Part shown: positions 22,520-61,984 of the stretch, one piece after another
Layout of the letters: each line of letters starts with the position of its first letter
Numbering within the stretch: the first letter of the stretch is position 1
DNA from: Clostridia bacterium
GTDB taxonomy: Bacteria > Bacillota > Clostridia > UBA1212 > UBA1255
DNA: 64,000 nt
Direction of reading: 5' to 3'
Assembly: GCA_017935905.1 (NCBI GenBank)
Contig: JAGBGO010000035.1
Location: forward strand, 36,064-100,063
Program-made: the position numbers and the translations under genes
Notes under the pieces: model-generated
What the model was told of the DNA's origin: nothing
The model's database searches: none
Seen by the model: only the letters and a program-made list of their open reading frames with translations

Positions 22520-24688
22520 TTATTTACCTCCTATGCGGGACATACTTCTTTGTGCCATCACTAAATCGTGGTAAATGCCTTTCTTAGCCAACAATTCTTC
22601 GTGAGTACCCACTTCTGCAAGGCCGCCTTTGTCCAATACGAAAATGCGGGTAGCATTGCGCAGGGTGGAAAGTCGGTGGGCAATGGCAATCGTCGTGCGA
22701 TCCTGAATCAAAATCTGCAAAGCATCCTGAATCTGTTTTTCCGTCTCCGTATCCAAGGATGCGGTAGCCTCGTCCAGAATTAAAATCTTTGGATCCCGAA
22801 GCAGCGCCCGGGCAATGGCAATGCGTTGCCGTTCTCCTCCGGACAACGTCTGACCTTTCTCCCCCACTCGGGTTTGGTAGCCCTGGGGCAATTTACAAAT
22901 AAACTCGTGGGCACCGGCAATCTTAGCGGCGCGGATAATTTCATCTCGGGTCGCCGTAGGTTTCGCGTAGCGCAGATTGTCGTAGACACTGCCGGCAAAC
23001 AGGAAAGTTTCCTGCAGCACCGCACCCACTTGGGAGCGGAGAGATTCCTGAGAAAACGTGCGAATATCCGTGCCATCGATGCGGATTTCCCCTTCCGTTA
23101 CGTCATACAGACGCATCACCAGGTTAATCAACGTAGATTTGCCCACACCGGAATGCCCCACAAGCCCGATCATTTCACCGGGGTGAATTTCAAAGGAAAT
23201 ATCCTTTAACACTTCCGAAGTCGGATCGTAGCCAAAGGAAACGTGATCGAAGGTAATGGTGCCTTCAATCTCTACGTCCTTGGCAGCTTCCGTATCCGCA
23301 ACTTCCGGCGTTTCATCCAGCACGTCAAACAAACGCACCAGTGCGGTGACCGCCCGCGCCAGGGCAGTGGGAATTCTGGTGAGCCATTGGATGGGCCCGT
23401 AAATCAGGGATACGTACGACGTAAACATCGTAGCCTCACCAATGGTCATAGTGCCGCCCAAAATTTTCTTTCCCGTGTAATACAACAAGAAGTACGTGCC
23501 CAGCGTTAAAGAAAAACGAATAAAGGGAGAAACCTTCGCCCAGAAAACTTCGTTGCGCACGGCAATCTGCCGTTCCTCGCCTGCCGCGCTACCGTAGCGC
23601 TCCGCCTCCCGGTCTTCCGTACCGTAAGACTTTACCACCCGGATGCCGGAGAAAATATCAAACAACACGTTTCCGGCACGGCTGCCGGCACGCCACTGCT
23701 GACCGTAGAGCTTTCGCACCTTGTGATGGAAGCCTCGCATCGCGGCAATAGCAATAGGCATGGGTAAAATGACGATTAAGAACAACCGCCAATCGTATGC
23801 CAGCATAACGCCGGCGATGGCAAGAAGCAACAACACTTGCCCAAAAATATTGGGAATTTCATATACGATAAAAGCTTGTACGTCCTGAGTATCTTGCCCA
23901 ACCCTTTGAATCAATTCACCGGCAGTCCGACGGGAGATTTGGGAGAGGGACATACTGTGGACTTTTTCAAAAACGTTTTCCCGAAGGCGCACGGAAATCC
24001 GCACGGCAGCTTGCATAATGGTAATGTTTCGCAGGATATTCACCACTTCATTGAGCAAGTAAACGCCCAACATAGAAAGTACCACTGCTACAAAGCCCGC
24101 AGCCACTTGTCCCGGTGCAGATTGCACCAAGGCTTGCATTTCGCTGTTTCTGATGTAATGGTCTACCAGAACTTTGCTCACGTAAGGGCCTAACAAGCCT
24201 ACTGCCGCTGCCAGCAAGAAGAATACAGCGGATCCAATTAAATATTTCTTGTACGGCAGTGCCAGTTGTACAAATCGGGCAAAAACTTTCTTTTTGTCCA
24301 CGCATTTCATACAAACGCTGTCGGGTCTTGGCAATTTCGCACCGCACTTGGGACATTTTGCAGTACCGGCGACTTGTAAATCTTCCGGAAAATCCCCGTT
24401 TTTCTTGTAAAGATTCAGCAAACGCACGACTTCCGCAAACAAATTGCGGTGCTCCATAGTACTGCGACACAGAATGCGGAAATGGCCTTCTGCATCTTTA
24501 TATTCTAAAGAAACGCTGCCATTTTCCCCACGAAGCAAGAACTCCTGCACGTCGGAAAAAGCCACAACCCGCGCCTGTTCGCCGTCTTCAAAGCACGTCA
24601 AAACCTCCCGGGTCACTTCCACCCGGCCTGTACATAGGTCGCCGCCCAGCGTCAGGTTATATCGAATTTCATTTCCAGCCGCCTTCAA
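22520..24688 (-). CDS. ABC exporter (fused TMD-NBD half transporter) with a ~150-aa N-terminal cytoplasmic extension ending in a zinc ribbon
   Basis: A TTG start is preceded by an AAGGAGG ribosome-binding site. The N-terminal extension contains CPKCGAKLPRPDSVCMKC. Six transmembrane helices and a C-terminal nucleotide-binding domain follow, with Walker A GHSGVGKST, LSGGERQR and ILILDEATASLD. Confidence 0.75.
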   Translation of the reverse strand: MKAAGNEIRYNLTLGGDLCTGRVEVTREVLTCFEDGEQARVVAFSDVQEFLLRGENGSVSLEYKDAEGHFRILCRSTMEHRNLFAEVVRLLNLYKKNGDFPEDLQVAGTAKCPKCGAKLPRPDSVCMKCVDKKKVFARFVQLALPYKKYLIGSAVFFLLAAAVGLLGPYVSKVLVDHYIRNSEMQALVQSAPGQVAAGFVAVVLSMLGVYLLNEVVNILRNITIMQAAVRISVRLRENVFEKVHSMSLSQISRRTAGELIQRVGQDTQDVQAFIVYEIPNIFGQVLLLLAIAGVMLAYDWRLFLIVILPMPIAIAAMRGFHHKVRKLYGQQWRAGSRAGNVLFDIFSGIRVVKSYGTEDREAERYGSAAGEERQIAVRNEVFWAKVSPFIRFSLTLGTYFLLYYTGKKILGGTMTIGEATMFTSYVSLIYGPIQWLTRIPTALARAVTALVRLFDVLDETPEVADTEAAKDVEIEGTITFDHVSFGYDPTSEVLKDISFEIHPGEMIGLVGHSGVGKSTLINLVMRLYDVTEGEIRIDGTDIRTFSQESLRSQVGAVLQETFLFAGSVYDNLRYAKPTATRDEIIRAAKIAGAHEFICKLPQGYQTRVGEKGQTLSGGERQRIAIARALLRDPKILILDEATASLDTETEKQIQDALQILIQDRTTIAIAHRLSTLRNATRIFVLDKGGLAEVGTHEELLAKKGIYHDLVMAQRSMSRIGGK

Positions 24689-24702
24689 CAGCCCAAGCCT
24701 CC

Positions 24703-25224
24703 TTACAAATACAGTTCCAAATGACGGTAACTCTTACGCGGGAGTGCATCCACGCTCATAATTTCATACACGTTGCCGTCCACGTCGTACACCAGCAAAT
24801 GGTCCGGCGTGATTTTGGTAATAGAGCGGTAGGTGTCCTGCACAGAGAACGATTTCTTGCCGCTTGCCGTAGTCACGTCCCAGTGAGTAAATCCGTACCG
24901 TTCTTTAATTTTCTCAATGGACAGGATTTCCCGGGTAAAATATTTTCTGGAAAGTTCCGTTCTGCAAGCCTCCCGGCTCTCTTCCGAAAGCTCCTGCAAA
25001 TCCCGGATCAAGCCAATTTCTTTCATCTCGCAATCCGTTACAGAAATATGGGTTTCCGGCTCATCAAAGGGAAAACACCGACTGAGCAGCACCCGGTCGT
25101 AATGTTCCTCTCCCATATCCATAGACAAAAATCCCTCGTCGTCACAAAAGGATGCGTTGTCCTTCGTAAGCCACGTAACGTCCACAATCCCGGATAATCC
25201 GTCTTTCTTTTGCTTCTCTTCCAT
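24703..25224 (-). CDS. Hypothetical cytoplasmic protein encoded between the two ABC exporter genes; possibly DUF1854-like
   Basis: The 173-aa protein is acidic and tightly packed between two ABC genes, with its stop overlapping the next ribosome-binding site. The family assignment is from memory only. Confidence 0.35.
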   Translation of the reverse strand: MEEKQKKDGLSGIVDVTWLTKDNASFCDDEGFLSMDMGEEHYDRVLLSRCFPFDEPETHISVTDCEMKEIGLIRDLQELSEESREACRTELSRKYFTREILSIEKIKERYGFTHWDVTTASGKKSFSVQDTYRSITKITPDHLLVYDVDGNVYEIMSVDALPRKSYRHLELYL

Positions 25225-25227
25225 ACT

Positions 25228-27441
25228 TTACTCCTCCACACCGATATTCTTCAGTGCGCTTAACTGAAGTTGATATAACCGGTAATAAATTCCTTTTTGT
25301 TTCAAAAGCTCCACGTGGGTGCCGGTTTCCGGCATCTTTCCCTTCTCAATGACAATTAAACTGTCCGCATTGCGCAGGGTGGAAAGTCTGTGGGCGATCA
25401 TAATGGTGGTCCGGTTCTCCGAAAGTCGTTCCAGGGCCTCCTGAATGGTGCGCTCCGTGGCCGTATCCATGGCCGCCGTGGCTTCATCCAAAATTAAAAT
25501 CTTAGGGTCTTTCAAAATGGCGCGGGCAATGGAAATCCGCTGTCGCTCTCCCCCGGATAAATCCTGATGTCCAAAGCCGATCTTGGTATGATAGCCGTTG
25601 GGCAACCGCATAATAAAATCATGGGCACCGGCAATCCGCGCCGCATGCAGAATTTCTTCTTTGGAAGCGTCCGGATTGGCGTAGGCAATATTCTCCAGCA
25701 CCGTGCCTGCAAATAAATAAGTTTCCTGAGAAACGATGGACACGCTTCTGCGCAAATCCTCAAAAGCCATATCTTTCACATTGACGCCGTCGATATAAAC
25801 GCCGCCGGAATCCACGTCATACAAGCGAATCAACAGATTCGCAAGGGTACTCTTGCCGGCACCGGAATGGCCTACGATACCTAAACGGTGTCCGGCGGAA
25901 ATTTTGAAAGAAATCCCTTCCAGCGTCTTGCGCCCTTTCTCATAAGAGAACTCCACGTCCCGGAACTCCACGTCTCCCCGAATTTCCGGCATAGACACAG
26001 GATGCTCCGCTTCCACAACGTCGGGAGAAGCGTCCGCAATTTCAAACAAACGTTGCATGCCGTTGACGCACCGGGTAAAATTATCCGACATATTGACAAA
26101 GCTAAACATAGGACCGTTCAAAATGCCCACGTAGGAAATAAATACCATTAAAGTACCGTAGGTAATCTGTCCTTTCATCGCCATCCAGCCGCCCACGCCC
26201 CAGACCAGTAAAGTGGAGAAATAAATCAGCAAATTCAAAGACGGGTGACGGGTGTTGTGGAAATACGTCAATTTTCTGGTCATCTCCGCCGCTTGTGTTG
26301 AGTAATAGTTGAATCGGCCGGTCTCTTCTTTCTCCCGGGCAAAGGCTTTCACCACCCGAACGCCGTTCAAAGAGTCGGACAGCACGCTGTTCATAGAGCG
26401 GTTCCGGGCATAACTTCTGGCATTCATCCACCGCTGCTGTTTCAGCACCCGGGTGACGGCATACAGGTAAAATGGCAGCGGAATGAGGGACGCAATGGCC
26501 AAAGGCACGTCAATGGTCAGCATTAAAATAAACACCGTCACCACTTGAATCAGGCTGGAGAAGAACACGGGAAAACCGTTTACAAAGAACCAGTAAATGG
26601 CATTGGAGTCCCGGTTAATCTGGGTCATCAAGCCGCCGGTCTGCCGCCCTGTAAAGAAGCGCATAGACAGTCTGCGAATGCTGTCGAAAATGGTGCGTTT
26701 CAAGTCGTAAATAATCCTGGCAGAGACTTTCGCCGTTACAATATCGCTGACCATCGTAATAAGAATCGTAGCGATTTGCGTGGCCAGCATCAGCGTAACC
26801 ACAAACAAAAGATCTCCGTAGAACTTTCCCCGAATATCCAGCACTTGGTCGTAGAAGAACGACGTGGACAAATACGGAGAAACGATGCCCAATATACTGG
26901 TAATGGCCATAGCCAAAAGGGCCAGCAGAATCTGTCCCTTGAATTTCTTGGCAAGGGTTAAGAATCGACCCACAATACTGGCTTTGTCCATACAGTCAGG
27001 ACAAACCTTTCGGTTTGGATCGGGATAACGGCGGTGACATTTCGGGCAAAATTGCTCCTGCAGGAAATCCTGTTCGTCTACCGTAATCTCACCGGTATCC
27101 ATTTGCATTTTTAAGTATTTAGCGAAAAGCCGGCACTCTTGCTTTCGGCTGTTGGTTAAAGTAGCAAGCAGCTTCCGCTTCCCTTGATATTCTCCAATGA
27201 ATACGCAAGTGCCGATCTTCTCTTCAATGGCTGGATTCTGTAAATCTTTCAAGGCATAGGTTTGGACGCGGTCTCCGTCGGAAATCAGCAGCGTGTCTTT
27301 GGTGGCCGCCAAAACGATTTCCCGCTCGTCATAATGGGCATTCAAATCCGCCCGGGCAAACAAAAGAACGTCCTCCGGGCTAACTTTCATCTTATGTAAT
27401 ATTTCGCCTGCACCATCGGTGCGTTGCGATAATTCCAACAT
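25228..27441 (-). CDS. ABC exporter (fused TMD-NBD) paralogue with an N-terminal zinc-ribbon extension
   Basis: The N-terminal ~150 aa contain CPKCHRRYPDPNRKVCPDC. Transmembrane helices and a nucleotide-binding domain follow (GHSGAGKST, LSGGERQR, ILILDEATAAMD). Confidence 0.75.
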   Translation of the reverse strand: MLELSQRTDGAGEILHKMKVSPEDVLLFARADLNAHYDEREIVLAATKDTLLISDGDRVQTYALKDLQNPAIEEKIGTCVFIGEYQGKRKLLATLTNSRKQECRLFAKYLKMQMDTGEITVDEQDFLQEQFCPKCHRRYPDPNRKVCPDCMDKASIVGRFLTLAKKFKGQILLALLAMAITSILGIVSPYLSTSFFYDQVLDIRGKFYGDLLFVVTLMLATQIATILITMVSDIVTAKVSARIIYDLKRTIFDSIRRLSMRFFTGRQTGGLMTQINRDSNAIYWFFVNGFPVFFSSLIQVVTVFILMLTIDVPLAIASLIPLPFYLYAVTRVLKQQRWMNARSYARNRSMNSVLSDSLNGVRVVKAFAREKEETGRFNYYSTQAAEMTRKLTYFHNTRHPSLNLLIYFSTLLVWGVGGWMAMKGQITYGTLMVFISYVGILNGPMFSFVNMSDNFTRCVNGMQRLFEIADASPDVVEAEHPVSMPEIRGDVEFRDVEFSYEKGRKTLEGISFKISAGHRLGIVGHSGAGKSTLANLLIRLYDVDSGGVYIDGVNVKDMAFEDLRRSVSIVSQETYLFAGTVLENIAYANPDASKEEILHAARIAGAHDFIMRLPNGYHTKIGFGHQDLSGGERQRISIARAILKDPKILILDEATAAMDTATERTIQEALERLSENRTTIMIAHRLSTLRNADSLIVIEKGKMPETGTHVELLKQKGIYYRLYQLQLSALKNIGVEE

Positions 27442-27456
27442 ACGAAACAATCTTCC

Positions 27457-37445: not shown

Positions 37446-37537
37446 GGAGAAGTACCCAAGTAGGTTGAAGGGGACGGTTTGCTAAATCGTTAGGTCGGGT
37501 GACCGGCGCCGGGGTTCGAATCCCCGCTTCTCCGCCA
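37446..37537 (+). tRNA. tRNA-Ser (anticodon GCU), class II with a long variable arm; CCA is encoded
   Basis: The cloverleaf is GGAGAAG acceptor stem / D-arm / anticodon loop TTGCTAA / long variable arm GGTCGGGTGACCGGCGCC / T-arm GGGGTTCGAATCCCC / CTTCTCC-GCCA. Confidence 0.85.
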
Positions 37538-37542
37538 AACAC

Positions 37543-37576
37543 AAAGAGACACCTTTTGAGGTGTCTCTTTTGTGTT
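37543..37576 (+). terminator. Rho-independent terminator after tRNA-Ser
   Basis: The hairpin AGAGACACCttttgaGGTGTCTCT is followed by TTTGTGTTT. Confidence 0.65.
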
Positions 37577-37778
37577 TCGTCGAAAACTGCGGCGGGGATG
37601 AGAAGCCCGCAGGGGTTCGTCGCAGGTGCCGGGCGCAGAGGGCGACCGGACGCCGAAGTCTCGAGCAGCGCAGCATTTCCCGGCACCGCCGACACGCGGT
37701 GGGAAATGCCAGTAAGCGCAGAGTATCCCCGCTTCTCTTTGTTTCACAGAAACTTGCGGCGGGGATGAGAAGCCCGCA
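37575..37778. repeat. GC-rich structured intergenic block with two 37-38-bp direct repeats and a duplicated tRNA-Ser 3'-end fragment
   Basis: Direct repeat 1 at 37575-37611 and direct repeat 2 at 37741-37778 are AACT(T)GCGGCGGGGATGAGAAGCCCGCAGGGGTTCGTC. Between them is a 9-bp-stem hairpin (GCATTTCCC...GGGAAATGC at 37663-37699). ATCCCCGCTTCTC at 37715-37727 copies the tRNA 3' end. Confidence 0.6.
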
Positions 37779-37782
37779 GGGG

Positions 37783-37915
37783 TTCGTCTTCTCAATGGGA
37801 TGTAAAAAGCCAAAATCGGCTTAAATTATACTTTTTTCAGGCCAATTTGTATACAAACCGGCTTTTTACCGCAAAAACATACCGGAATTCCGGTCAAACC
37901 GCGGAAATCCGGTAT
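37783..37915. repeat. Dispersed ~110-130-bp intergenic repeat, copy A
   Basis: Copy A is about 75% identical to copy B at 53643-53760. Shared blocks are CAATGGGATGTAAAA, CCAA(A)TTGTATACAAA, TTTTACCG.GAAAA.ATACCGGAATT. Copy A also has the perfect palindromes TTTGTATACAAA (37846-37857) and ACCGGAATTCCGGT (37871-37884). An inverted terminal copy TTTACATCCCA lies at 37938-37948. Confidence 0.6.
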
Positions 37916-37965
37916 AAAATTGTCTTAAAAATCAAATTTACATCCCACTGGCATTTTACCAAAAC

Positions 37966-39018
37966 TCATTTCAAATACAACGCTTTGAAATCTTCTCGAT
38001 CCCGAAGGGGGTCAAAGCAGGGATGATTATTCAAACTATCAATAAAATCATCCAAATCCGTAGCATCGCGGTCCGTCTTGATTGTCTCCCCCGCTACACG
38101 GTCAAAGAAGGGGGCCGTGAAACGGTACTGTGTTTGCTGGCCGTATTGTACCATTTCCTCCGCGTGAAATCTCGCCGTTCGCAACGCCGCAATAACTTCG
38201 TCGTATCGTTTTTCTTCGCAGAGCATAAACGCTTTATCCATGGCGTTATATTGTAAAATATTGTGATAATATTGGTAATTGCCATCCGGGAAAAGAATTT
38301 TCAAGATTTGTTCGATGGCATCGCGGGCTGCGATCGAGTAGTTTGCAACCTTGAATTGTAACAAAAATTCATTCAAACAATTTTCTGCAACCTTTTGCCT
38401 GTGGCAAATCTTTTCCTCACCTTCTAAACACCAGCAAAGGGCACTATCTCGATCATGGTCATTTTCGATCCGCATCGCATACTCTTTTGCTTCGGTCTTT
38501 CTTCCCAGCATATGAAGGGGCCAAACAATTCCCTGCAACGCACGATTACGCAATTTAGAATCGTTTGTATTGTCCAAAACAAGTTTGTAGTGTTTAGCAG
38601 AGCTTTCAAGCAACCGATTGTATGATTCCGGATCTTCCGCTAGGGAACCAACATAGAATTCTGCAGAAGCAAGCCATTCCATATATTCCATATTTCCGGG
38701 ATACGCCTCTACTGCGCGGACAGCCACCGCGTAATTTTTCTCCTTGTCATCATGTTTCCAATATTCATGAAACGCCTCTTCAAACTCTGCCTTTCTCAAA
38801 TCCTTTTGATACTGATCCATTTCCAATAAATAATCGGTGGTGACGCCAAAGAGATTCGCAATAGGCGGTATCAGGGATATATCCGGCATTGCACAGTCGG
38901 TTTCCCAACGACTTACAGCCTGCGGGGATATCGACAACAATTCAGCAAGGTTTTCCTGGGTCATATCGGCTTCCCGCCGAAGTTTTTTGATAATTTTACC
39001 AAAAGACATATAGATCAT
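37966..39018 (-). CDS. XRE-family HTH transcriptional regulator with a large C-terminal helical domain (possibly TPR-like); RNPP-like architecture
   Basis: The N-terminal Cro/C1-type HTH is IKKLRREADMTQENLAELLSISPQAVSRWE. The C-terminal domain is about 280 aa and helical. Confidence 0.6.
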   Translation of the reverse strand: MIYMSFGKIIKKLRREADMTQENLAELLSISPQAVSRWETDCAMPDISLIPPIANLFGVTTDYLLEMDQYQKDLRKAEFEEAFHEYWKHDDKEKNYAVAVRAVEAYPGNMEYMEWLASAEFYVGSLAEDPESYNRLLESSAKHYKLVLDNTNDSKLRNRALQGIVWPLHMLGRKTEAKEYAMRIENDHDRDSALCWCLEGEEKICHRQKVAENCLNEFLLQFKVANYSIAARDAIEQILKILFPDGNYQYYHNILQYNAMDKAFMLCEEKRYDEVIAALRTARFHAEEMVQYGQQTQYRFTAPFFDRVAGETIKTDRDATDLDDFIDSLNNHPCFDPLRDREDFKALYLK

Positions 39019-41886: not shown

Positions 41887-42336
41887 ATGGTAGACCGTTT
41901 TGAACGTTTTTCCTTTGCAATTTATGAATTATCCCGTTATTGGCACAAGATTGCCTCGGATGAAATGGAGAAATATGGATTAAAAGGGCCGTATGCCGTT
42001 TATTTTACCACCCTGTACCGAAATCCCGAAGGAATGACCGCCGCCCGCCTTTGCGAAGTTTCCGGCCGTGACAAAGCGGACGTTTCCCGGGCCATCAGCG
42101 CCATGGAGAAACAAGGACTGGTGACAAAAGAAGGCAGTCAGTATCGCGCACTGCTGAAGCTGTCCCCCGCCGGCATGCAAGCCGCCAACCAGATCAATGA
42201 ACGAGCGCGGGTTGCCGTGGAATTAGGAGGAAGAGGGTTAACGCCGGAACATCGGGAAATTTTCTACGCCGCTATGGAACAAATTGTTGCAAATCTTCAA
42301 ATACTCAGTGAGGAAGGACTTCCTTCAGAAAGGTAA
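41887..42336 (+). CDS. MarR-family transcriptional regulator
   Basis: It has a winged-HTH core (LKGPYAVYFTTLYRNPEGMTAARLCEVSGRDKADVSRAISAMEKQGLV). A GGAGGT ribosome-binding site is present. Confidence 0.7.
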   Translation: MVDRFERFSFAIYELSRYWHKIASDEMEKYGLKGPYAVYFTTLYRNPEGMTAARLCEVSGRDKADVSRAISAMEKQGLVTKEGSQYRALLKLSPAGMQAANQINERARVAVELGGRGLTPEHREIFYAAMEQIVANLQILSEEGLPSER

Positions 42337-42340
42337 TTCA

Positions 42341-43177
42341 ATGAAAATTGTATTTGATTCATCGGCAGATCTTCGTGGTCTTACAAAGAGCTCGTCTTCT
42401 TGTGCCCCTTTAAAGATTATTACTGCAGAAAAAGAATATGTGGACAACGATTCTTTAGATATTGGCGGTATGGTGGAAGATTTGCTGCACTACAAAGGTA
42501 AATCCTCCACGTCCTGCCCCAACCCGGAAGATTGGCTCTCTGCTTTTGGTGATGCCCGGGAGATTTTCTGCATTACCATTACCGGAACCCTTTCCGGCAG
42601 TTACAATGCCGCATGTGTGGCAAAAAATTTGTATATAGAGCGTCACCCGGATGCACAAATTTGCGTAATCAACTCCCTGTCCACGGGACCGGAGATGAAA
42701 TTGATTATCGAAAAATTGCAGGAGTGGATGGAAGGGGGCCTGCACTTTTAAGAAATTGTGCCAAAAATCGAGACGTACCGACAAAACACCGGACTGCTGT
42801 TTATGTTGGAATCTATGCGCAATTTAGCCAACAACGGAAGAGTCAGCACCCTTTCTGCAAAAGCGGCGGGACTGCTCGGCATCCGTGTGGTAGGAAAAGC
42901 CAGCGATCGGGGAGATTTAGAACCTTTAGACAAGTGTCGCGGGGAGAATCACGCGTTGGCATCTTTGGTTAAGCACTTGAAAGGGCTGGGGTTTGCAGGG
43001 GGTAAAATACGCATTGCCCACTGCTTTAACGAAACCGGCGCCAAGAAATTACAAGATTTAATTTTAGCCGAATACCCGCAAACCCACGTGCAAATCTACC
43101 CCACCGGCGGCCTTTGCAGCTTCTACGCAGAAAAAGGCGGCCTTCTCGTAGGTTTTGAGAAAGCCGCTGAATTATAA
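42341..43177 (+). pseudogene. DegV-family (fatty-acid-binding, EDD-fold) gene interrupted by a single in-frame TAA at 42749-42751
   Basis: The N-terminal half (42341-42748) and the C-terminal half (42752-43177) are in the same reading frame. They translate to ...LQEWMEGGLHF*EIVPKIETYRQNTGLLFMLESMRNLANNGRVS.., which reads as a contiguous DegV. Confidence 0.6.
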
Positions 43178-51006: not shown

Positions 51007-51137
51007 ACGTTAACCTCCAATTATGAATTGAATTATATTTTACTTTATGATACCATACTCTTGTTGGGTACTGATTTATTTTTTTGACCTATATTTGTAT
51101 TTTTTTGACTTTTCGTAAAATGGAGGTTGGAGGTTCT

Positions 51138-51980
51138 ATGGCAAGACCCGCACTGAAAGAAATCACCCCGGTGGTTTACAAAGACCACGCGGTAAAGGTG
51201 CTGCACCACATGGAAACGGCACCCCATGCCGAGTGTTTTCCTTTGCACTGGCACGATCGTGTGGAGCTACTTTTGATTACACAAGGATCCATGGAAATCC
51301 AATTAGGCGATGAACTGCAAGTGGCAGCGCAAGGCAGTTTGGCGATTATCAACGTAGGGCAGCCCCATCGGGGAATCGCCGGAGACCAAGGGGTGCAATA
51401 CCAAGTGCTGATGTTCGAACCCGGTACTTTTCAAAACAGCACACCGGCATCCCAACGTTTTATTGCCCCCATTTTACAGAACCAAACGGTATTTTGCCAC
51501 GTCACCCAAAATGAAGAGGTGCTGCAAACCGTCCGCCAAATCCTGCAACTCCACGAAGACCCTTACACGAACCCCCTGCAGATTATGGGCCTCACGTATT
51601 ACTTATTAGGGCTTTTCAGCCGCCACTGTTTAGGGACGGCCCGGGTAACCGCACAGGAAGACGCGCAATTTAAGCCTGTACTGGAATATATGAATGCGCA
51701 TTTTACCGAGAAAATTTCTACCAAAACGCTGAGTCACACCTTCGGCTACGACGAAGCCTATTTTTGTCGGCGTTTTAAGCGCACCACCGGCATTACGGTG
51801 ATGAAATACATTCAAATTCTGCGGCTGGAATATGCCCAGCAATTGCTCAAAAAGAAAGACCGAAATATCAGCGATATTGCGGTCCTCTGCGGTTTTTCAG
51901 ATATTTATTATTTCACTCGGTGCTTTAGCAAGCACTTCGGCATCGCGCCCACCGAATTCAGGAAAGCCCACCGAGGGTAA
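51138..51980 (+). CDS. AraC-family transcriptional regulator (cupin plus HTH)
   Basis: GGAGGTTGGAGG lies before the ATG at 51138. The C-terminal HTH is TKTLSHTFGYDEAYFCRRFKRTTGITVMKYIQ. Confidence 0.75.
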   Translation: MARPALKEITPVVYKDHAVKVLHHMETAPHAECFPLHWHDRVELLLITQGSMEIQLGDELQVAAQGSLAIINVGQPHRGIAGDQGVQYQVLMFEPGTFQNSTPASQRFIAPILQNQTVFCHVTQNEEVLQTVRQILQLHEDPYTNPLQIMGLTYYLLGLFSRHCLGTARVTAQEDAQFKPVLEYMNAHFTEKISTKTLSHTFGYDEAYFCRRFKRTTGITVMKYIQILRLEYAQQLLKKKDRNISDIAVLCGFSDIYYFTRCFSKHFGIAPTEFRKAHRG

Positions 51981-53601
51981 GCCGTAGGTCCGCCAGTTCC
52001 TCCGGCTTTACCTTCTCCACCTGCCGATCATAGGTAATGAGACCGTTCACCTCATCCTCCACGTCGGAAATTTGGGTATATACCGCAGCGCACAAGCCCT
52101 TCTCTATCAAAGGCGCCACTTCCTCTAAATAAACTTTGCGCAAAGCCTGCACAAATTCTTCTCGGGACGTGCATTTTCCGTAGCCGTATTCCTTCTTGGG
52201 GTTAAACACGTGCCCTTCCACCTGATACGAATACCCGCCGAACTCCGACAGCACCAAAGGTTTTTTCCCTGCTTTCAAACGCACCTTGCGGAAATATACG
52301 TGGCGGCTGTCCACGTCTGAGTCCACCCCGGAGAACCAACCGGACGCCGTATCGATCACGCGGCTGTCGTCCAAGGTCTTGAGCCGCTTGTACATGGCCG
52401 TACCGCAGAACTGACCCCAGCCTTCGTTAAAAATGGTCCAATAGCAAATACAAGGATGATGATAAAGGGTTTCTACTGTCTCTACCATCGCCTGCTCAAA
52501 TGCCGCCCGGCTTCGCTTATTTCTGTGGAGCCACCGATCCGGAAGCCACTTTAAGCCAACCGTAGGCAGCACTGTATCCCGCAAGAAAGAATACGCGCCG
52601 TTATTTACCATATCCTGAAACACCACCATGCCTAAGCGGTCACAGGCATAATAAAATAACTGAGGCTCAATCTTAATGTGTTTGCGCAGCATATTAAAGC
52701 CAAGTTTCTTGGCAAACAGAATATCTTGTTCGTACGCCGTCGGACTGTTCGGCGTAAAAATGCCGTCTTGCCAATACCCCTGATCCAAAAGACCGTGGAA
52801 GAAATAAGGTTTCCCGTTGAGGCAAATCCGCGGATATCCGTCCACGTCCTTGATTTCAAGGGTACGCAGGGCAAAATAAGACTGCACCCGGTCCTTTCCG
52901 GTCTGAACGGTAAAATGGTACAAATAAGGATCCTCCGGAGACCAATTTCGCGGATTTGGAATCGGGATGCGGCAACTGCCATTTTCCAGTTCCACCGGCA
53001 CCATACTCTGAATTTCCACAACGCCCTCCGTAGCGCCGCTTACAGAAATTTCCACCCAATCTGCCCCATTTTTCACCCGAATTCCCTGAATATACACCTC
53101 CGGCACCGACTCCATCCATACCGTCTGCCAAATACCGGAAACCGGAGTGTACCACATGCCCCCACGTTTGCGGGTTTGCTTGCCGTAGGGCAAAATCTTC
53201 TTACTTAAATGATCCCGCACTTCCACCGTAAGCACGTTCTCCCCTTGCAGGAAATCGGTCACGTCAAAGGTAAAAGGCAGATATCCCCCTTCGTGGGTTC
53301 CCACCACCCGGCCGTTGACGTACACCCGGGCAATTTGGTCTACGGCGCCGAAATGGAGTAGCACACGGCTTTTCCGAAAGCCTTCCGGGAGGGTAAAATG
53401 CCTTTGATACCAAAGCACTTGTTCTTCCCGGTACACTTCTCCGGTGCCGGACAGTTTGGACTCCGGGCAGAAGGGCACTTGAATGGTTTGGTTATATTGG
53501 GGCTTGTCGCCTTCGTTGCATACATCAAAATCCCATGGACCATTGAGGCACAAAAAAGATTCTCTTTGCAAGGTAGGGCGAGGATATTGGTTCCAGTTCA
53601 T
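51958..53601 (-). CDS. Glycoside hydrolase family 2-like protein (beta-galactosidase/beta-glucuronidase type)
   Basis: The 547-aa protein has an N-terminal sugar-binding region, an Ig-like region and a TIM barrel, with the block YWTIFNEGWGQ. An AAAGGAGAT ribosome-binding site is present. Its 3' end overlaps the AraC gene convergently by 23 bp. Confidence 0.55.
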   Translation of the reverse strand: MNWNQYPRPTLQRESFLCLNGPWDFDVCNEGDKPQYNQTIQVPFCPESKLSGTGEVYREEQVLWYQRHFTLPEGFRKSRVLLHFGAVDQIARVYVNGRVVGTHEGGYLPFTFDVTDFLQGENVLTVEVRDHLSKKILPYGKQTRKRGGMWYTPVSGIWQTVWMESVPEVYIQGIRVKNGADWVEISVSGATEGVVEIQSMVPVELENGSCRIPIPNPRNWSPEDPYLYHFTVQTGKDRVQSYFALRTLEIKDVDGYPRICLNGKPYFFHGLLDQGYWQDGIFTPNSPTAYEQDILFAKKLGFNMLRKHIKIEPQLFYYACDRLGMVVFQDMVNNGAYSFLRDTVLPTVGLKWLPDRWLHRNKRSRAAFEQAMVETVETLYHHPCICYWTIFNEGWGQFCGTAMYKRLKTLDDSRVIDTASGWFSGVDSDVDSRHVYFRKVRLKAGKKPLVLSEFGGYSYQVEGHVFNPKKEYGYGKCTSREEFVQALRKVYLEEVAPLIEKGLCAAVYTQISDVEDEVNGLITYDRQVEKVKPEELADLRLTLGGLS

Positions 53602-53630: not shown

Positions 53631-53660
53631 ATTGTACCACGACAGCAATGGGATGTAAAA
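53631..53660 (-). promoter_or_regulatory. Sigma-A-type promoter (TTTACA-18-TACAAT) for the GH2-like gene, embedded in repeat copy B
   Basis: On the minus strand TTTACAtcccattgctgtcgtggTACAAT lies about 30 nt upstream of the ribosome-binding site. Confidence 0.45.
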
Positions 53661-53760
53661 CGCAGAAAATCAACGAAAATATACATTTGGAAGTCCAAAT
53701 TGTATACAAATCGCCATTTTACCGTGAAAATATACCGGAATTTATGCAATCGTTAAAGTA
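53643..53760. repeat. Dispersed intergenic repeat, copy B
   Basis: It aligns with 37783-37915 at about 75% identity. Confidence 0.6.
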
Positions 53761-54200
53761 TCCCCCCGGACGTAACAAGGATCGTCACCGCCATAGTACA
53801 CAGACGTACCCCAAATGGGTACAAATTTTACAGAAATTTCCCGCTCCACAATCAAGGTAAAAGAAACCTTTTCACGGAAATCATTCTCAGCGTTATCGTC
53901 CACACCAATTTGCAGCGTATAATAACATTGATTACCAACCTCAATTTTGCAGAAACCGGTAGAGGCGGAACCTTCCACATACGACAAATTAACCGCATAC
54001 TGTCCCGGCGCTAACGTCATCGTGTTGGAAGTATAGAGATCTTCCTCTCCCTGCAAGATCTGAATATCCAAAGTATAGTTGGCAGCAACAATCCGGTTAC
54101 TGCCGGAATCTACACCGGCGGTAAAATACCCAAAGGCTGCAAAACTCATCGATGTGAGCAAAAGCACAATAGATACAAAAGAAAAATATATTTTTCTCAT
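53742..54200 (-). CDS. Small secreted protein (152 aa), last gene of the SipW/TasA-like operon
   Basis: The signal peptide is MRKIYFSFVSIVLLLTSMSFAAFGYFTAG. Its start overlaps the upstream gene in an ATGA arrangement. Confidence 0.45.
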   Translation of the reverse strand: MRKIYFSFVSIVLLLTSMSFAAFGYFTAGVDSGSNRIVAANYTLDIQILQGEEDLYTSNTMTLAPGQYAVNLSYVEGSASTGFCKIEVGNQCYYTLQIGVDDNAENDFREKVSFTLIVEREISVKFVPIWGTSVYYGGDDPCYVRGDTLTIA

Positions 54201-54826
54201 GCGGCACCCCCTTGCTGGGTCGCGCGAACAATCAACCCTAAATCTACTTCCGGCACCACTTCGCCTCGGTAATTCGCTTGGTTATCGACCTCTTCCGGCA
54301 TCCGTACGATAAGCGCCACGTATGCAGTTTCCTCGGCACCCAAAGAAGCCTTCTCCGAAGCATATTGATTTAATTCCATATTGGCATAGGCGCAGGCTCG
54401 CTCTCTTGTTCCCACAAGGGCATCCAGCGCGCCTTCGTCTGTGTCAGTCACCAAACCGAATTTCAAATAGTCCTGCAGGATAAACGGCTCTCCCATCATA
54501 TTCTCTGCCACGGTATATCCCGTCACGTTAACAGCAGTATAAAAATCAAAAGGTACAGTTCCCTTGTTCTCCACTTTCAAATAAACCACTTGCACGTAAC
54601 CGGGCTCATACAAAGCGTTGTCATCAAACACCTTTGTATCTGCCTCAAGCTCTTTATACGACCCATCCGCCTGCCTATAAGACACCTTCAACTCAAAATC
54701 TGCAAAATGGAACACGTTCTGTAATTCCGGCGTAGCATCAGAGAACCATGCAATGGAGGTACCGGCACCCAAAATAATCCATAACAAAATCAAGCCTACA
54801 CTGAGGGTAAAAGCAATTTTCTTCAT
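54197..54826 (-). CDS. TasA/camelysin-like protein with a SipW-cognate class signal peptide
   Basis: MKKIAFTLSVGLILLWIILGAGTSIAWFSDA has a motif matching the SipW-cognate signal (..GT.A.FSD). An AAGGAGGG ribosome-binding site is present, and its start overlaps the previous stop in an ATGA arrangement. Confidence 0.55.
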   Translation of the reverse strand: MKKIAFTLSVGLILLWIILGAGTSIAWFSDATPELQNVFHFADFELKVSYRQADGSYKELEADTKVFDDNALYEPGYVQVVYLKVENKGTVPFDFYTAVNVTGYTVAENMMGEPFILQDYLKFGLVTDTDEGALDALVGTRERACAYANMELNQYASEKASLGAEETAYVALIVRMPEEVDNQANYRGEVVPEVDLGLIVRATQQGGAA

Positions 54827-55467
54827 GCTTTTTCCCTCCTTTTTCGCAAGATAAACAGCAAGATTAACAGGAAACCCGCCCCACCTAAGATCGCAAACCA
54901 CAAAGGCCGATTAAAAGTATCGCCCGTAGGCGGCACCGGGTCGTCATTTTCCACTGGAAACTCCTCTACCTTAAATTCCCAATCCAAATAGCCGGTCTGC
55001 CCGCTATATTCATTGCCAAGGGTCACCGGCACCTCCAAAAGAACTTCCAGATTGACCACGCCGCCGGAATACAAAGTACCCAAGCAAACCCAATCGGAAA
55101 GTTGCGCCGTTTCGGAAGCTGCGCTGTCAAACATATACGCCATGGTATTGTCCGAAGCGGCCCGCACTTTCAGTCCCAACTGAGACAAAAATCCTTCCGA
55201 GCCCGCCTGCGCACCCAAGGCGCGCAGATAGATCTTTACTTTAACCTTCTTAGAGGCTTCATTTCGAACTGTAATGTTTTGTGTCAATGTATCCCCGGGC
55301 ATAACGTCCTTAAATGCAGGAAACAAATCCGTAGGAGACTGACTGCTGCCGGGGGTAAAAATAAATTCACCTGAATCTCCGGCATACGTGACGGAACTCT
55401 CCTTTGCCATAGTCGGCAGGCTGAAACACAGCAGCAATATGAAAATGATACAAAAAATTCTTCTCAT
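54823..55467 (-). CDS. Secreted protein with a C-terminal LPXTG-like sorting signal (VPPTG, hydrophobic segment, RKRREKA)
   Basis: It has a standard signal peptide and a beta-rich domain. The C-terminal tripartite cell-wall sorting signal is VPPTGDTFNRPLWFAILGGAGFLLILLFILRKRREKA. Confidence 0.5.
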   Translation of the reverse strand: MRRIFCIIFILLLCFSLPTMAKESSVTYAGDSGEFIFTPGSSQSPTDLFPAFKDVMPGDTLTQNITVRNEASKKVKVKIYLRALGAQAGSEGFLSQLGLKVRAASDNTMAYMFDSAASETAQLSDWVCLGTLYSGGVVNLEVLLEVPVTLGNEYSGQTGYLDWEFKVEEFPVENDDPVPPTGDTFNRPLWFAILGGAGFLLILLFILRKRREKA

Positions 55468-55479
55468 CTTGCCACCTCC

Positions 55480-56046
55480 TTATTCCATCGGCCAACCGGA
55501 AGCCGTATAGGTCTTTCCGTCCGTAATAGGATTATGCTCACTCTGAACTGCGTGGGCAGAAACCGTCAAGGACAGCGTCTTACCAATGTAACGATTATCC
55601 ACTTTATCCCCTACGATTTCCACATGGGAGAAAACGCAAGGCGTTGTTTCGCCCGGTGTTAAAATGCTTTTATAATAGTACCAGCCTTCATGAAACTCCC
55701 AATGCTCTGCGTCAATATTCAATTTGAAACAATCCTCTGCAGAAAGTTCTTGGGCATTCACGCCGTACACCACTTTGACCCGCAGGTAAAATGGGTGGGT
55801 GCACGTGTTCTCAATAGTCACTTCTTTGCTCACCACGTCGCCGGGAACAATGTACACACCCTCACTGGGAAACGCCGTACCTTGCTCTGTGGTTTCGTGG
55901 ATAATAAATTGGATTTCGCCGGAGGTCACTACGTTCGTAGCCTTTCCCACGGTAGAATAAAATGCAAGTGTGCCTTGTGCAAAGAAGGTCATCAAAATGG
56001 CCACCATTGCAATGGCGACAATTTTCAACTTCATACTTCTCAACAC
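55480..56046 (-). CDS. TasA/camelysin-like protein with a SipW-cognate signal peptide
   Basis: The N-terminus is MKLKIVAIAMVAILMTFFAQGTLAFYS. The protein is 188 aa. Confidence 0.5.
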   Translation of the reverse strand: MLRSMKLKIVAIAMVAILMTFFAQGTLAFYSTVGKATNVVTSGEIQFIIHETTEQGTAFPSEGVYIVPGDVVSKEVTIENTCTHPFYLRVKVVYGVNAQELSAEDCFKLNIDAEHWEFHEGWYYYKSILTPGETTPCVFSHVEIVGDKVDNRYIGKTLSLTVSAHAVQSEHNPITDGKTYTASGWPME

Positions 56047-56231
56047 AAAAACCTCCTTTATAATTTTAGTAGAAAAAGGGCATCAGACGATATTGGGGGA
56101 TGCATATCCAATGCCCTTTCTGCCTAAGAGATAATCCTCGGCAGGCAAAAAGTATAAATCTGAAAGAAGCAGGACTTATACCCTTTGCTTGCCGCCCAAC
56201 GCCTCGCAAGGCGTTGGGACGGGCAAAACAA

Positions 56232-58430
56232 TTATTTTACAGTAGCATTTTGAACATTGGAAGTTACAAGCGTACCAATATTCTCAGCAGTAAGAAGAAC
56301 ACCGTTCAACCGGCAGTTCTCAAAGGTAACCGCCGCACGAGGATCCATTGCAAAGCCTTCGCTGAAATCGCAATCTACAAAGGTTGTGGGCGCATAGGGA
56401 CGGCAGAACGCATAACCTGCACCCTTACCAAAACTACAGCCTGTAAATTCAGCATCGCCAATAGTTGCAGCATAACTGGTCCAACCATTGATAACACAGT
56501 TTGTAGCCGTTAAACCATTACCGGTTCCTTGATCACAACTAATTGTGTAGGTAGGACCATCAATGGTTACATTTTCCAAATAAACTCTGCTACCTGTAGC
56601 GTTGTGATTTACAAACACACCACGGAAACCTTTTGCAATTGTCAGATTTTTTATCGTGCCACCAGTGATATTAATGGCAGAATCCCATGTACTGGTTGCA
56701 CCATTAACAATCAAGACCTTACCATTTCCATCCAAAGTTTCACCATTTTTGATATTGAGACCGGTAGCGCCATATCCATTACTCTCACTGTCAGTGGTTG
56801 TAATATCACAATCGAGGATGATAAGCTGTGCATCTCCTTCCAATGCTTCTCTAAGTGCATCAGCATCTTTTGCATAAGCAATCATCGTCTCAGCACTCTC
56901 TATATCGTAACACTCATACCCGTCATTATCGATGTAAGGCGCTTTGATTGTAGACAACCCAAAATTGGCGACATTATCCCTGACTAATGTGTTGCATTTA
57001 GAAAGCGCATAGAAATTTCTAAGAGCAATTACAGTCATATCTCCAGCAAAGGTATTCAGGAAACTATTTTCCAGAACAGAAATCTTTAATGCATAAGAAC
57101 AAGAAGCATTGTTATGGGGTGTAACGACTACATTACCATTCATAAACGTATTACCAATTACAGAAACGTGACCCTGGGTAGCACCTACATACACAGCAGT
57201 ATTTACAGTTGTATCTGCGGTTCCAAAACTGTTGTTGATAATCTTAAATTCGCCTTTAAGCTGATAACCGGGATAGTACATATAAATATAATATAAGGCA
57301 TCCGTTTCAAAGGTACACCCATCAATAACAGCACCTTTCATACCGCCACTTTTACGATTTCTTTCATAGAAAACAACAGGAATATATTTACTGGAATCTG
57401 CAGGCTTTCCGGTAAAGGTACAATTGATAATTTGCAGATTATCTGCACCGTTTGCGCTGTTCTCGGCACCAGTCACATTGGTGTAAAGATCAAGTGCATT
57501 ATTGACGCCACTTGTTTTAGTCATACCGTACGCCATCTGAGCACCTGCCGCATCAAAGGTAATGCCAATCAACTTGCAATTATTCTTTGCATTGGCATTA
57601 ACATAGTCAACAACAGCAGAATTAGTAACCAGTGTCAAATCGTTTTGAGTCAGTGTAAGTTTGCCATATTGTCCATCAGACAATCCAATTACCATACCTT
57701 CTGTAGCTGTAGCAAGAATATCGTCAATGGTTTCAGGTGTAGCAACTACATCACAAGGCAAAGCATCTGCATCGTAATCATTACCGAAGGCATCATTCTC
57801 ATTGACATATTGAGTAGCTACAAGATTAATTCCTAATCTGATGGTAGGAACAACAGTCCCGGTCTTGTAATTTGCCTCATTACCAACGGTTTCAGGCATA
57901 TAAACTACCATGGAAATATAATCCGTATCATTGGTAGACTCCAGGGTAGAGCCTTTGGAAAATCCTGCCGAAATTACGTTGGCGTCTGTAATAGCAGCTC
58001 GTGCCTCATCCCGACTTGCAAAAGCTGTTTCTGTTTCAACAACACCAAATTGAATATAGTTAGAAAGCTTAAATTTCTCTCCCGAAACATTTGTGCCCAA
58101 TGTTTCAGAAATAACATTAATGCCCAAATGATACTTAAACGCCAGGGTACCAGCGTTTACCACTTTCAGATACACAACTTCTGTATGACCGGGTTCCCAA
58201 AGAGCCTCCGCATCAAATACGTTGGTATTCTCATCCACAAGTTTCCAATCCTTTGCGTCCGTGCTCCAATACAATTCTGCATCCAAATTACCGGACTTAA
58301 TAATATTATTGTTCGATGATACACTGTCTGTAAACCATGCAAAAGTAGTACCAACCAACATAGATACGCACATAACGAGTGCCAATGCACTCATCAATAA
58401 AGCACGTTTTGTGCTTTTTGTTTTTGTCAT
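56232..58430 (-). CDS. Large (732 aa) fusion of an N-terminal TasA/camelysin-like domain with a C-terminal right-handed parallel beta-helix (pectate-lyase-like) region
   Basis: The SipW-cognate signal is ALVMCVSMLVGTTFAWFTDS. A ~220-aa TasA-like domain follows. Then come many beta-helix rungs (..NCTFTG.., ..IINNSFG.., ..VIGNTFMNGN.., ..LENSFLN.., ..TGGTIKNLTI.., ..ATNCVINGW..). An AGGAGG ribosome-binding site is present, and its start overlaps the upstream stop. Confidence 0.55.
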   Translation of the reverse strand: MTKTKSTKRALLMSALALVMCVSMLVGTTFAWFTDSVSSNNNIIKSGNLDAELYWSTDAKDWKLVDENTNVFDAEALWEPGHTEVVYLKVVNAGTLAFKYHLGINVISETLGTNVSGEKFKLSNYIQFGVVETETAFASRDEARAAITDANVISAGFSKGSTLESTNDTDYISMVVYMPETVGNEANYKTGTVVPTIRLGINLVATQYVNENDAFGNDYDADALPCDVVATPETIDDILATATEGMVIGLSDGQYGKLTLTQNDLTLVTNSAVVDYVNANAKNNCKLIGITFDAAGAQMAYGMTKTSGVNNALDLYTNVTGAENSANGADNLQIINCTFTGKPADSSKYIPVVFYERNRKSGGMKGAVIDGCTFETDALYYIYMYYPGYQLKGEFKIINNSFGTADTTVNTAVYVGATQGHVSVIGNTFMNGNVVVTPHNNASCSYALKISVLENSFLNTFAGDMTVIALRNFYALSKCNTLVRDNVANFGLSTIKAPYIDNDGYECYDIESAETMIAYAKDADALREALEGDAQLIILDCDITTTDSESNGYGATGLNIKNGETLDGNGKVLIVNGATSTWDSAINITGGTIKNLTIAKGFRGVFVNHNATGSRVYLENVTIDGPTYTISCDQGTGNGLTATNCVINGWTSYAATIGDAEFTGCSFGKGAGYAFCRPYAPTTFVDCDFSEGFAMDPRAAVTFENCRLNGVLLTAENIGTLVTSNVQNATVK

Positions 58431-58450
58431 TTTATTTTTCCTCCTAATCA

Positions 58451-59137
58451 TTAAGCCTCAATGGCCATTCCAACAGTCGCGAAAGCTTCATACGCATTAT
58501 CGCCAACGTGCTCAGTCTGTACCGCCTGAGCCTTTACGTCAATTGCAAAACTGCCGCTAAACGCAGCCGCTTGTTCTCGCGTTAGGGACTCGGGAACCTT
58601 CACAGCGTTGAAGAGTACCAGATCTTCTTCGCTTTCAAGAATATCCGTATAGTACAGTACGTAGGTAACAGTATCTGTTTCGCCATTGATATCTTTCGAG
58701 ATATGATCCCATTTCGTTTCATCAAAACCAACAAAGACCGTGTTCATATCAATATCCAAGCCAACTGCATTGATCCATGCGGTCGCATCAGAAATCTTCA
58801 CAATCACACGAATGTATTGATCGTAATGACCCGTATTGGTAACGTGTGCAATCTTACTGAGTTCGTCACCGGGAAGAATATTCTCATAAACAAGGGACGC
58901 ATCTGTTCTCTCAACATCCTCGACTTCATTAAAGTCACCGTCGCCGTTAGAATCTTTCTGCTCCCATACATCTACAGAGAAAATCTTATCCGGCGTATTG
59001 TCCTCAGAATCAGCAACGAAGAATTCGTTGTACACGCTGTCCTTGTGTGAGAACCATGCGAGTGATCCCATAGAGAGAATGGCGATTAAGCATACTGCCA
59101 AAGCTGTTACAAAAACCTTTTTCTTATTGAACTTCAT
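58451..59137 (-). CDS. TasA/camelysin (peptidase M73 / CalY)-like protein with a SipW-cognate signal peptide
   Basis: MKFNKKKVFVTALAVCLIAILSMGSLAWFSHK is followed by a TasA-like beta-domain. The protein is 228 aa. Confidence 0.6.
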   Translation of the reverse strand: MKFNKKKVFVTALAVCLIAILSMGSLAWFSHKDSVYNEFFVADSEDNTPDKIFSVDVWEQKDSNGDGDFNEVEDVERTDASLVYENILPGDELSKIAHVTNTGHYDQYIRVIVKISDATAWINAVGLDIDMNTVFVGFDETKWDHISKDINGETDTVTYVLYYTDILESEEDLVLFNAVKVPESLTREQAAAFSGSFAIDVKAQAVQTEHVGDNAYEAFATVGMAIEA

Positions 59138-61918: not shown

Positions 61919-61984
61919 GCCAATCAACTCCTTTATTAATTGATACTTTTATTATTATAGGTTTGAAAAATAATTTCAATACAA

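Follow-up and report, generated by a model that had tools for sequence, protein, structure and literature searches.

The stretch analysed here, referred to as the window, covers 64,000 nucleotides of a Clostridia bacterium contig (JAGBGO010000035.1). It is core chromosome of an uncultured, Oscillospiraceae-like member of the Clostridia, with mreBC, a penicillin-binding protein gene, radC and pgi, and its homologues were proteins of Clostridia metagenome-assembled genomes (MAGs). Two intergenic segments of the window, copy A and copy B, carry the same small repeat, which is called the module below. Copy B lies between a 152-aa open reading frame (ORF) and the gene of a GH2-family glycoside hydrolase, and copy A begins 16 bp past the stop of an XRE-family regulator gene and has on its other side a GC-rich region that follows tRNA-Ser(GCT) (Table 1). 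A sequence-only reading of the window had proposed that the pair was either a mobile miniature element delivering promoter or operator sequences or a shared regulator-binding module, and both proposals are weighed here.

Similarity of the two copies and anatomy of the module

Copy A (37793-37889) and copy B (53646-53742) were aligned over 97 nt with zero gaps and about 80% identity, and the 67-nt core of the alignment was 81% identical. Blastn gave 79.6% identity over 98 nt (E 2e-17), and a MAFFT alignment was also made, so the similarity first noted was borne out. This similarity is colinear over 97-160 bp, and therefore indicates common descent of the two copies, not a shared site. The limits first given for the copies had to be corrected: the right end of copy A is 37950 rather than 37915, which makes the unit about 160 bp long, and the similarity of copy B ends at 53742, at the stop codon of the 152-aa ORF, and not at 53760.

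Relatives of the window (loci numbered with L) were reached through homologues of its GH2 and XRE proteins, and exact-protein look-ups of these two proteins gave zero matches. Where the GH2 locus of a relative carries two modules, the one next to GH2 is called m2 and the other m1. The anatomy was read from an alignment of nine copies from at least five genomes, all in GH2-sense orientation. The unit is non-coding and is bounded at both ends by inverted arms of 10-14 bp, CAnTGGGATG(TAAA). The distal arm, CAGTGGGATG(TAAA), is followed by ATACCGGA and a variable spacer of 19-21 nt, after which come TCCGGTATrTTTTyrCGGTAAAA, which is the best-conserved block, then rTATACnAnTTG, AAAnGTATrwTTT and GATTTT, and finally the proximal arm TTTTACATCCCAwTG. 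GTAT/ATAC boxes stand at constant offsets of -46, -13, +15/17 and +38 from GTAAAA, and the box region of 84 bp has no indel in any of the nine copies. The half-sites of an internal dyad, ATACCGGA and TCCGGTAT, are conserved in sequence in 8/9 copies without compensatory change, and an internal promoter-like site, P2, retained its hexamers and 17-bp spacing in 9/9.

The inverted 11-mers reported around copy A (TGGGATGTAAA, 37796-37806, and TTTACATCCCA, 37937-37947) were found and extend to 14 nt. Terminal inverted repeats were also found outside copy A: L002 m2 has CAGTGGGATG and CATCCCAATG with an arm-to-arm spacing of 148 bp, the same as that of copy A despite cores that are only 72% identical, and the distal arm is kept in L010 and L018 m2. 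The two perfect palindromes reported in copy A, TTTGTATACAAA (37846-37857) and ACCGGAATTCCGGT (37881-37894), are both present. The palindromes are poorly kept between copies: in copy B the first is reduced to the 10-nt TTGTATACAA (53700-53709) and the second is missing, TTGTATACAA is lost in the m2 modules of L002 and L018, and ACCGGAATTCCGGT is specific to copy A. On the minus strand of copy A, ACCGGAATTCCGGT and the T-run that follows it scored as a terminator-like hairpin; a terminator role was rejected, because the other copies do not conserve the hairpin.

AA/TT periodicity of 10-10.5 bp was strong in 8/8 copies tested (p<=0.001 against shuffles). Among 2554 sliding 150-bp windows, copy A ranked first for 10.5-bp AA/TT periodicity and copy B was the next locus. 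About 14 A/T tracts of copy A, read by eye, are in helical phase at 10-10.5 bp, so the unit is predicted to be strongly curved DNA.

Table 1 Features of the two module copies and of the genes beside them (window coordinates)
Feature	Position	Strand	Remarks
Copy A, full-length arm-to-arm module	37791..37950	-	nhmmer 37947-37791, E 4.7e-44; top periodicity of 2554 windows
Copy A proximal arm CAATGGGATGTAAA; on the minus strand TTTACATCCCATTG, a -35-like TTTACA without downstream -10	37793..37806	+	
Copy A distal arm TTTACATCCCACTG, inverted proximal arm, 13/14 complementary	37937..37950	+	148-bp arm spacing
Internal dyad ATACCGGA...TCCGGTAT	37863..37931 (arms 37863-37892 / 37902-37931)	.	encloses ACCGGAATTCCGGT 37881-37894
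P2, promoter-like site TATACA-17-TATAAT (10/12)	37825..37853	-	overlaps TTTGTATACAAA 37846-37857
Copy B, distal side truncated by the stop codon of the 152-aa ORF	53643..53749	-	nhmmer 53749-53643, E 3.2e-27
P1, predicted GH2 promoter: -35 TTTACA within arm, 17-bp spacer, TG-extended -10 TACAAT outside the repeat	53631..53659	-	
Copy B equivalent of P2, TATACA-17-TATATT (9/12)	53678..53706	-	
GH2-family glycoside hydrolase gene	51958..53601	-	Pfam Glyco_hydro_2_N/_C; orthologues 75-96% identity
152-aa ORF, stop codon abuts copy B	53742..54200	-	
XRE-family regulator gene (HTH_3 + ~280 aa), clade-conserved core gene	37966..39018	-	
tRNA-Ser(GCT)	37446..37537	+	marks the variable locus of copy A, with tRNA-3'-end-like duplicates 37573-37621, 37740-37788

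The GH2 promoter and the rearranged locus around it

On the minus strand at copy B, TTTACA (53659-53654) is followed after 17 bp by TGGTACAAT, then by AGGAG and then by ATG. The hexamers, a spacing within 16-18 bp and the placement of the ribosome-binding site and start codon are those of a sigma-A promoter, which agrees with the earlier proposal that this TTTACA is the -35 of the GH2 promoter (TTTACA-17-TACAAT with TG before the -10, 53659..53631). The same promoter is present upstream of GH2 in L001, L002, L006 and L018 (GH2 protein 77-96% identical), and the module lies upstream of GH2 in L002-L005 and L018 (GH2 protein 77-80% identical). It is thereby shown, at the level of sequence, that an arm of the module supplies the putative -35 of a well-formed GH2 promoter conserved across species. 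The upstream region represented by copy B is the ancestral one for GH2. In L002 and L019 the 152-aa ORF reaches into the distal arm with its final codons and its stop (CAGTGGGATAA). L006 retains the core GH2 promoter though its upstream module is replaced; at 4775-5040 the module has been swapped for two copies of a different repeat, GC-rich and about 55 nt long (GACGGCGCGCAGCCAAGG.TGGGCGTAAAATGCTC...), which may represent a further family of dispersed repeats.

In several relatives the locus also carries a gene for a 258-aa protein (L001 4615-5391, L002 8929-9705, L018 5001-5777), which was looked for in the 64-kb window and is absent from it. The order is m1, the 258-aa gene in reverse orientation, full m2 and GH2 in L018; only the arm, the 258-aa gene and m2 in L002; and m1, the 258-aa gene and a stub of m2 in L001 and L019. 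The m1 and m2 modules (about 115-160 bp) are 60-64% identical to each other. A three-way alignment showed that copy B follows m1 as far as GTATATTTT and m2 thereafter, so copy B is a hybrid of m1 (left) and m2 (right) with its crossover at GTATATTTT. The simplest reading of this hybrid is a recombination between direct repeats, which would have deleted the 258-aa gene. It shares with solo-LTR (long terminal repeat) deletion the direct module copies that flank the gene in L018 and the left/right hybrid without the gene in copy B. Unlike LTRs, these modules are short intergenic repeats of low mutual identity, and the event may have been a deletion or an insertion.

The trees of the 152-aa, 258-aa and GH2 genes conflict, and thus the GH2 locus is a recombination mosaic. 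Between species the module is 81-95% identical, roughly tracking the adjacent coding DNA (72-89%), and this suggests that it is under some constraint, short of ultra-conservation. A claim of ultra-conservation for m1, which is 95% identical between genomes whose 258-aa proteins are 67% identical, was withdrawn, because the DNA of the neighbouring 152-aa gene likewise reaches 89% identity; the high identity of m1 therefore reflects the mosaic locus and not a special constraint.

The 258-aa family has more than 800 homologues, is widespread in Clostridia and has no Pfam domain, and many of its members lie on contigs of about 1 kb. A confident model predicts a PD-(D/E)xK nuclease fold, nearest to TnsA and to the homing endonuclease I-Bth0305I (TnsA/Vsr-like). 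The modelled protein has a restriction-endonuclease-like fold with conserved acidic residues, and the lysine expected to be catalytic in its E-x-K motif could not be made out (WEHFG). In the relatives the gene is not consistently bounded by module arms. A paralogue in the representative MAG RGIG7274 lies between a helix-turn-helix (HTH) gene and dnaE without module or flanking repeats, and a general link between the family and the module was therefore rejected. The gene's own promoter region contains repeated GGGAAATA-N-TTCA motifs, which are also found upstream of a paralogue.

Two further observations concern the surroundings of copy B. Small ORFs without Pfam domains (188, 214, 234 and 152 aa; window 54197-58451, L002 1-8925) form a cluster that ends at copy B. 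They lie downstream of large proteins with weak camelysin/TasA-like (Peptidase_M73) matches, to which relatives add a signal-peptidase-like gene, and the cluster resembles a TasA/SipW-type fibre or matrix operon. A gene for an Xer-like tyrosine recombinase lies at window 61097-61927, about 7 kb from copy B, and a 52% identical homologue lies at L010 4253-5092, where the RGIG7274 module copy is 1.7 kb away; neither gene was tied to the repeat.

Copy A, copy number and signs of mobility

Copy A has an orthologue in L013 and L014 (86% identical) and is missing from L015, a closer relative (XRE protein 94% identical) that has 190 bp of unrelated sequence in its place. L013 and L014 have, between their XRE gene and the module, a small gene for a membrane protein, which is preceded by a promoter of its own. 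The better reading of this small gene (L013 4034-4273, L014 1302-1541) is on the opposite strand, where it would encode about 100 aa and have a TTGACT-16-TACAAT promoter; it is missing from the window. Copy A is an orphan: both of its outward-facing -35 arms lack a -10 and a gene, so it probably has little or no regulatory role. Its P2 points antisense into the tRNA-linked GC-rich region.

That region contains a GC-rich element of about 150-220 nt directly 3' of tRNA-Ser (window 37572-37792, L013 4512-4700, L015 1694-1905). A direct repeat of 49 nt (37573-37621, 37740-37788) and a second copy of the tRNA 3' end, ATCCCCGCTTCTC (37520, 37725), flank this element, and relatives conserve it. The plus strand gives a multi-stem fold closed by an acceptor-like helix, with 2 compensatory pairs in three sequences and z = -2.25, and no match was found among Rfam families. 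The element may be what is left of an att site, or a tRNA-linked RNA not described before.

In the 64-kb window, an nhmmer profile built from nine copies found only copies A and B, and motif searches agreed. A scan of representative genomes with a pattern that fits 8/9 known copies gave 2 true matches, both in RGIG7274, and 4 further chance matches. The copy number is about 2 per genome sampled. The second RGIG7274 copy, L010, occupies a non-orthologous locus; a YitT-family gene adjoins it, and an HTH gene and the Xer-like recombinase gene are close by. No further copy was found in the other clade DNA fetched, which had been chosen for the GH2 and XRE loci. GTDB representative genomes, JGI metagenomes, IMG/VR, plasmids and phages (pattern scans, with blastn for plasmids and phages) yielded no homologue outside the clade. 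The first metagenome and viral pattern gave 0 matches, and a looser second pattern gave 32, all of which nhmmer showed to be confined to the pattern itself.

In copy A, L010 and the m2 modules, the arm is where homology to the remaining copies sets in, and in copy A the opposite arm also marks its end. This suggests that a discrete unit was copied rather than a random segment duplicated. The flanks of copy A (...AAAATGC | ... | AGAAGAC), L002 m2 and L010 were read, and no target-site duplication was visible at any copy. Transposase domains or an autonomous parent sharing the arms were looked for in the 64-kb window without success, and the arm motif is confined to copies A and B. The possibility that the two copies bound a genomic island was rejected, because the gene order between them is that of relatives; no integrase lies inside.

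Other repeated or split features of the window were recorded. A DegV-family gene is split into two ORFs in the same frame, 42284-42751 for the N-terminal half of the Pfam model and 42758-43177 for the C-terminal half, and the split (42284-43177) is likely an in-frame stop or other mutational split, or a sequencing error. A 1186-aa ORF (8965-12525) has internal repeats at a spacing of 650-670 bp (11140-12318), two adjacent paralogous genes of about 720-740 aa lie at 22520-24688 and 25228-27450 (repeat 22653-25567), and neighbouring ORFs are repeated at 59.4-60.7 kb (repeat 59685-60437).

Proposed origin and role of the module

The reading we prefer, and hold tentatively, is that the module is a low-copy, arm-bounded, curved cassette resembling a miniature inverted-repeat transposable element (MITE), which was co-opted as a promoter/operator and copied a few times within the clade. 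Its native site would be GH2, where the proximal arm would give a sigma-A-type promoter its -35 and some of its spacer, with the -10 located in flanking DNA. Upstream, the curved DNA with its boxes most likely serves as an UP-like region or as a region that binds a factor. Because this upstream DNA is predicted to be curved and has phased boxes, its 95-150 bp probably enhance or regulate the recruitment of RNA polymerase, whether by contacts of the UP type, by an activator or by a loop between the arms. Inside the module, P2 may be a weaker tandem promoter. The whole cassette would have been copied from arm to arm, giving the second tandem copy at GH2, the copy at the XRE/tRNA-Ser locus and that at a third locus in RGIG7274. 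Arm-bounded copies at three loci favour a site-defined copying process.

The earlier idea of a mobile miniature element thus survives in part: the unit is arm-bounded, its arms recur in L002, L018 and L010, the loci are non-orthologous, copy A is present or absent between relatives, and an arm provides the GH2 -35. The alternative foreseen at that time, that these are paralogous promoters of duplicated genes and that other copies lack terminal inverted repeats, is not what was found. Copying of the whole unit from arm to arm within the clade makes the module MITE-like in anatomy and behaviour, yet it is low-copy and no transposition machinery was identified.

Small promoter-bearing intergenic repeats such as the Correia repeat enclosed element (CREE) of Neisseria, ERIC/IRU, RUP and BOX occur in tens to hundreds of copies per genome, and CREE makes a TA target duplication. 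Set side by side by description, the module shares with CREE-type repeats a non-coding length of about 100-160 bp, terminal inverted repeats, variable presence, promoter elements that face outward from the ends and combine with the flanks into hybrid promoters, and a predicted central bend or architectural-protein site. It differs from them in having about two copies per genome and no duplication, and in that one copy is orthologous across species. Curved DNA with phased A-tracts is also known upstream of sigma-A promoters, such as the Clostridium perfringens plc promoter and Bacillus phage promoters, with 3-6 tracts over 30-60 bp. The module shares with them helically phased A/T tracts directly upstream of the -35, but it has about 14 tracts over about 150 bp and inverted arms, and it is a copied cassette, one copy of which has no gene. 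It is best filed with the small inverted-repeat-bounded intergenic repeats that donate promoter elements, among which its DNA-curvature periodicity would be unusually strong.

Several points weigh against this reading. Target-site duplications are lacking, the sampled genomes have about two copies each, and the window holds no transposase. No clean empty site for copy A was found, since L015 has unrelated filler at that place. The data at the GH2 locus are compatible with either order of events, deletion or insertion. The phylogenies of the flanks are mosaic, so the high module identity between some genomes may come from recombination and not from selection. A mere stub of the module adjoins the GH2 promoter in L001 and L019, and in L006 the module is replaced, so its upstream part is dispensable for having a GH2 promoter.

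A somewhat unlikely alternative is a non-mobile operator architecture, in which the arms would be operators of a dimeric or tetrameric repressor and the 148 bp of phased A-tract DNA would favour a repression loop or a wrapped complex. The GTAT boxes would then bind an activator, for example the neighbouring AraC-family protein, the extra copies would come from ordinary recombination, and copy A would be a decoy or relic. This account draws on the arm CATCCCAnTG, which is conserved at the two ends of the module and continues past the -35 into the spacer of the promoter, on the 148-bp arm spacing (about 14.1 helical turns) kept in two copies with diverged cores, and on the boxes at constant offsets of 33, about 30 and 21 bp. 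The dyad ATACCGGA-N19-21-TCCGGTAT fits it too: its spacer is variable and it has no compensatory changes, which is what a protein-binding site, rather than an RNA, would show. An AraC-family gene adjoins GH2 in the window (51084-51980), L001 and L018, but the L002 lineage has the module and no AraC gene beside GH2. The operator account also leaves unexplained three independent copies that start exactly at the arm, and the m1 copies and L010 are conserved although they have no proximal arm.

No isolated arm or box motif occurs upstream of other genes of the window. CANTGGGATG and CGGTATRTTTT were found only inside copies A and B when the 64 kb were searched, and the shared regulator-binding module proposed earlier, read as the operator of a regulon, is thus unsupported in the window. 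CcpA, CodY, CtsR, LexA and sporulation-sigma consensus sequences did not fit. TTGTATACAA resembles the core of the Bacillus subtilis GntR operator; it is not conserved in the m2 modules of L002 and L018, and no GntR-family gene was seen.

It is less probable that a mobile nuclease-gene cassette has the module as its landing pad or its flank; in such a cassette the 258-aa PD-(D/E)xK protein would act like a free-standing homing endonuclease and cut gene-less alleles in or near the module. Repair would then copy the gene with its flanking module, copy B would be a gene-less allele, and duplicated modules, presence or absence of the gene and mosaic flanks would result. The systems to compare are free-standing homing endonuclease genes and intronless homing (phage T4 seg/mob genes, I-Bth0305I family) and TnsA of Tn7: the predicted fold of the protein is nearest to TnsA and I-Bth0305I, and like homing endonuclease genes the 258-aa gene is intergenic, variably present at one locus and set in mosaic flanks. 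It differs from these systems in residing on a bacterial chromosome and not in a phage, in lacking TnsB/TnsC partners and in having a stable module-free paralogue elsewhere, the one between the HTH gene and dnaE in RGIG7274. Neither copy A nor its L013 orthologue carries any vestige of the 258-aa gene, the relic in L010 is short and ambiguous, and the E-x-K lysine, not evident in the protein, also speaks against this account. That module and 258-aa gene together form a previously undescribed chromosomal mobile cassette of gut Clostridia seems very doubtful to us. If it were true, the module would be the target that the nuclease recognises or cuts, and gene and module would be copied together during repair or recombination, leaving tandem, solo hybrid (copy B) and orphan (copy A) modules able to donate -35 elements to genes beside them.

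A classical MITE, that is, a deletion derivative of a transposase element moved in trans with many more genomic copies, is very unlikely. The length of about 160 bp, the terminal inverted repeats, the A/T-richness, the outward-facing -35 at the ends, the non-orthologous loci and the presence or absence between relatives would all suit it. However, there are no target-site duplications and no transposase in the window, only two copies occur in the window and two in the one representative genome scanned, and the other clade DNA held no extra copy. The GH2-locus copy is orthologous across species with GH2 proteins 77-80% identical, which is unusually old for a MITE. The anatomy is MITE-like, with terminal inverted repeats, but formal membership fails on target duplication and on copy number in the genomes sampled.

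The least probable account is a small RNA or tiny peptide, made from the P2 transcript (in m1, antisense to the 3' end of the 258-aa gene, into which P2 points) or from a 12-23-codon ORF starting at GGTAAAATG (MxVCIQFGLKKV...): the conserved P2 and an in-frame ATG in 8/9 aligned copies would fit, but the RNAalifold consensus was weak (-8.5 kcal/mol), its covariation term was positive (+0.89) and its pairs hardly varied, hence no covariation, Rfam gave no match at the gathering threshold or, beyond noise, at E<=10, the sequence downstream of P2 is unconserved among loci, and the mini-ORF has no Shine-Dalgarno sequence, has AAG for ATG in copy A, the exception, and shows substitutions unbiased to third codon positions.

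The module opens no long-standing question, and the unannotated, widespread 258-aa nuclease-fold family is the more interesting lead. If the reading of a copied, co-opted cassette is right, a small, bent, inverted-repeat-bounded piece of non-coding DNA would have become part of a gene promoter, and the same DNA would be a recombination substrate that gains and loses a neighbouring nuclease gene. Uncultured gut Clostridia would then provide an example, open to testing, of a repeat that donates a promoter and of intrinsic DNA curvature that persists from species to species.
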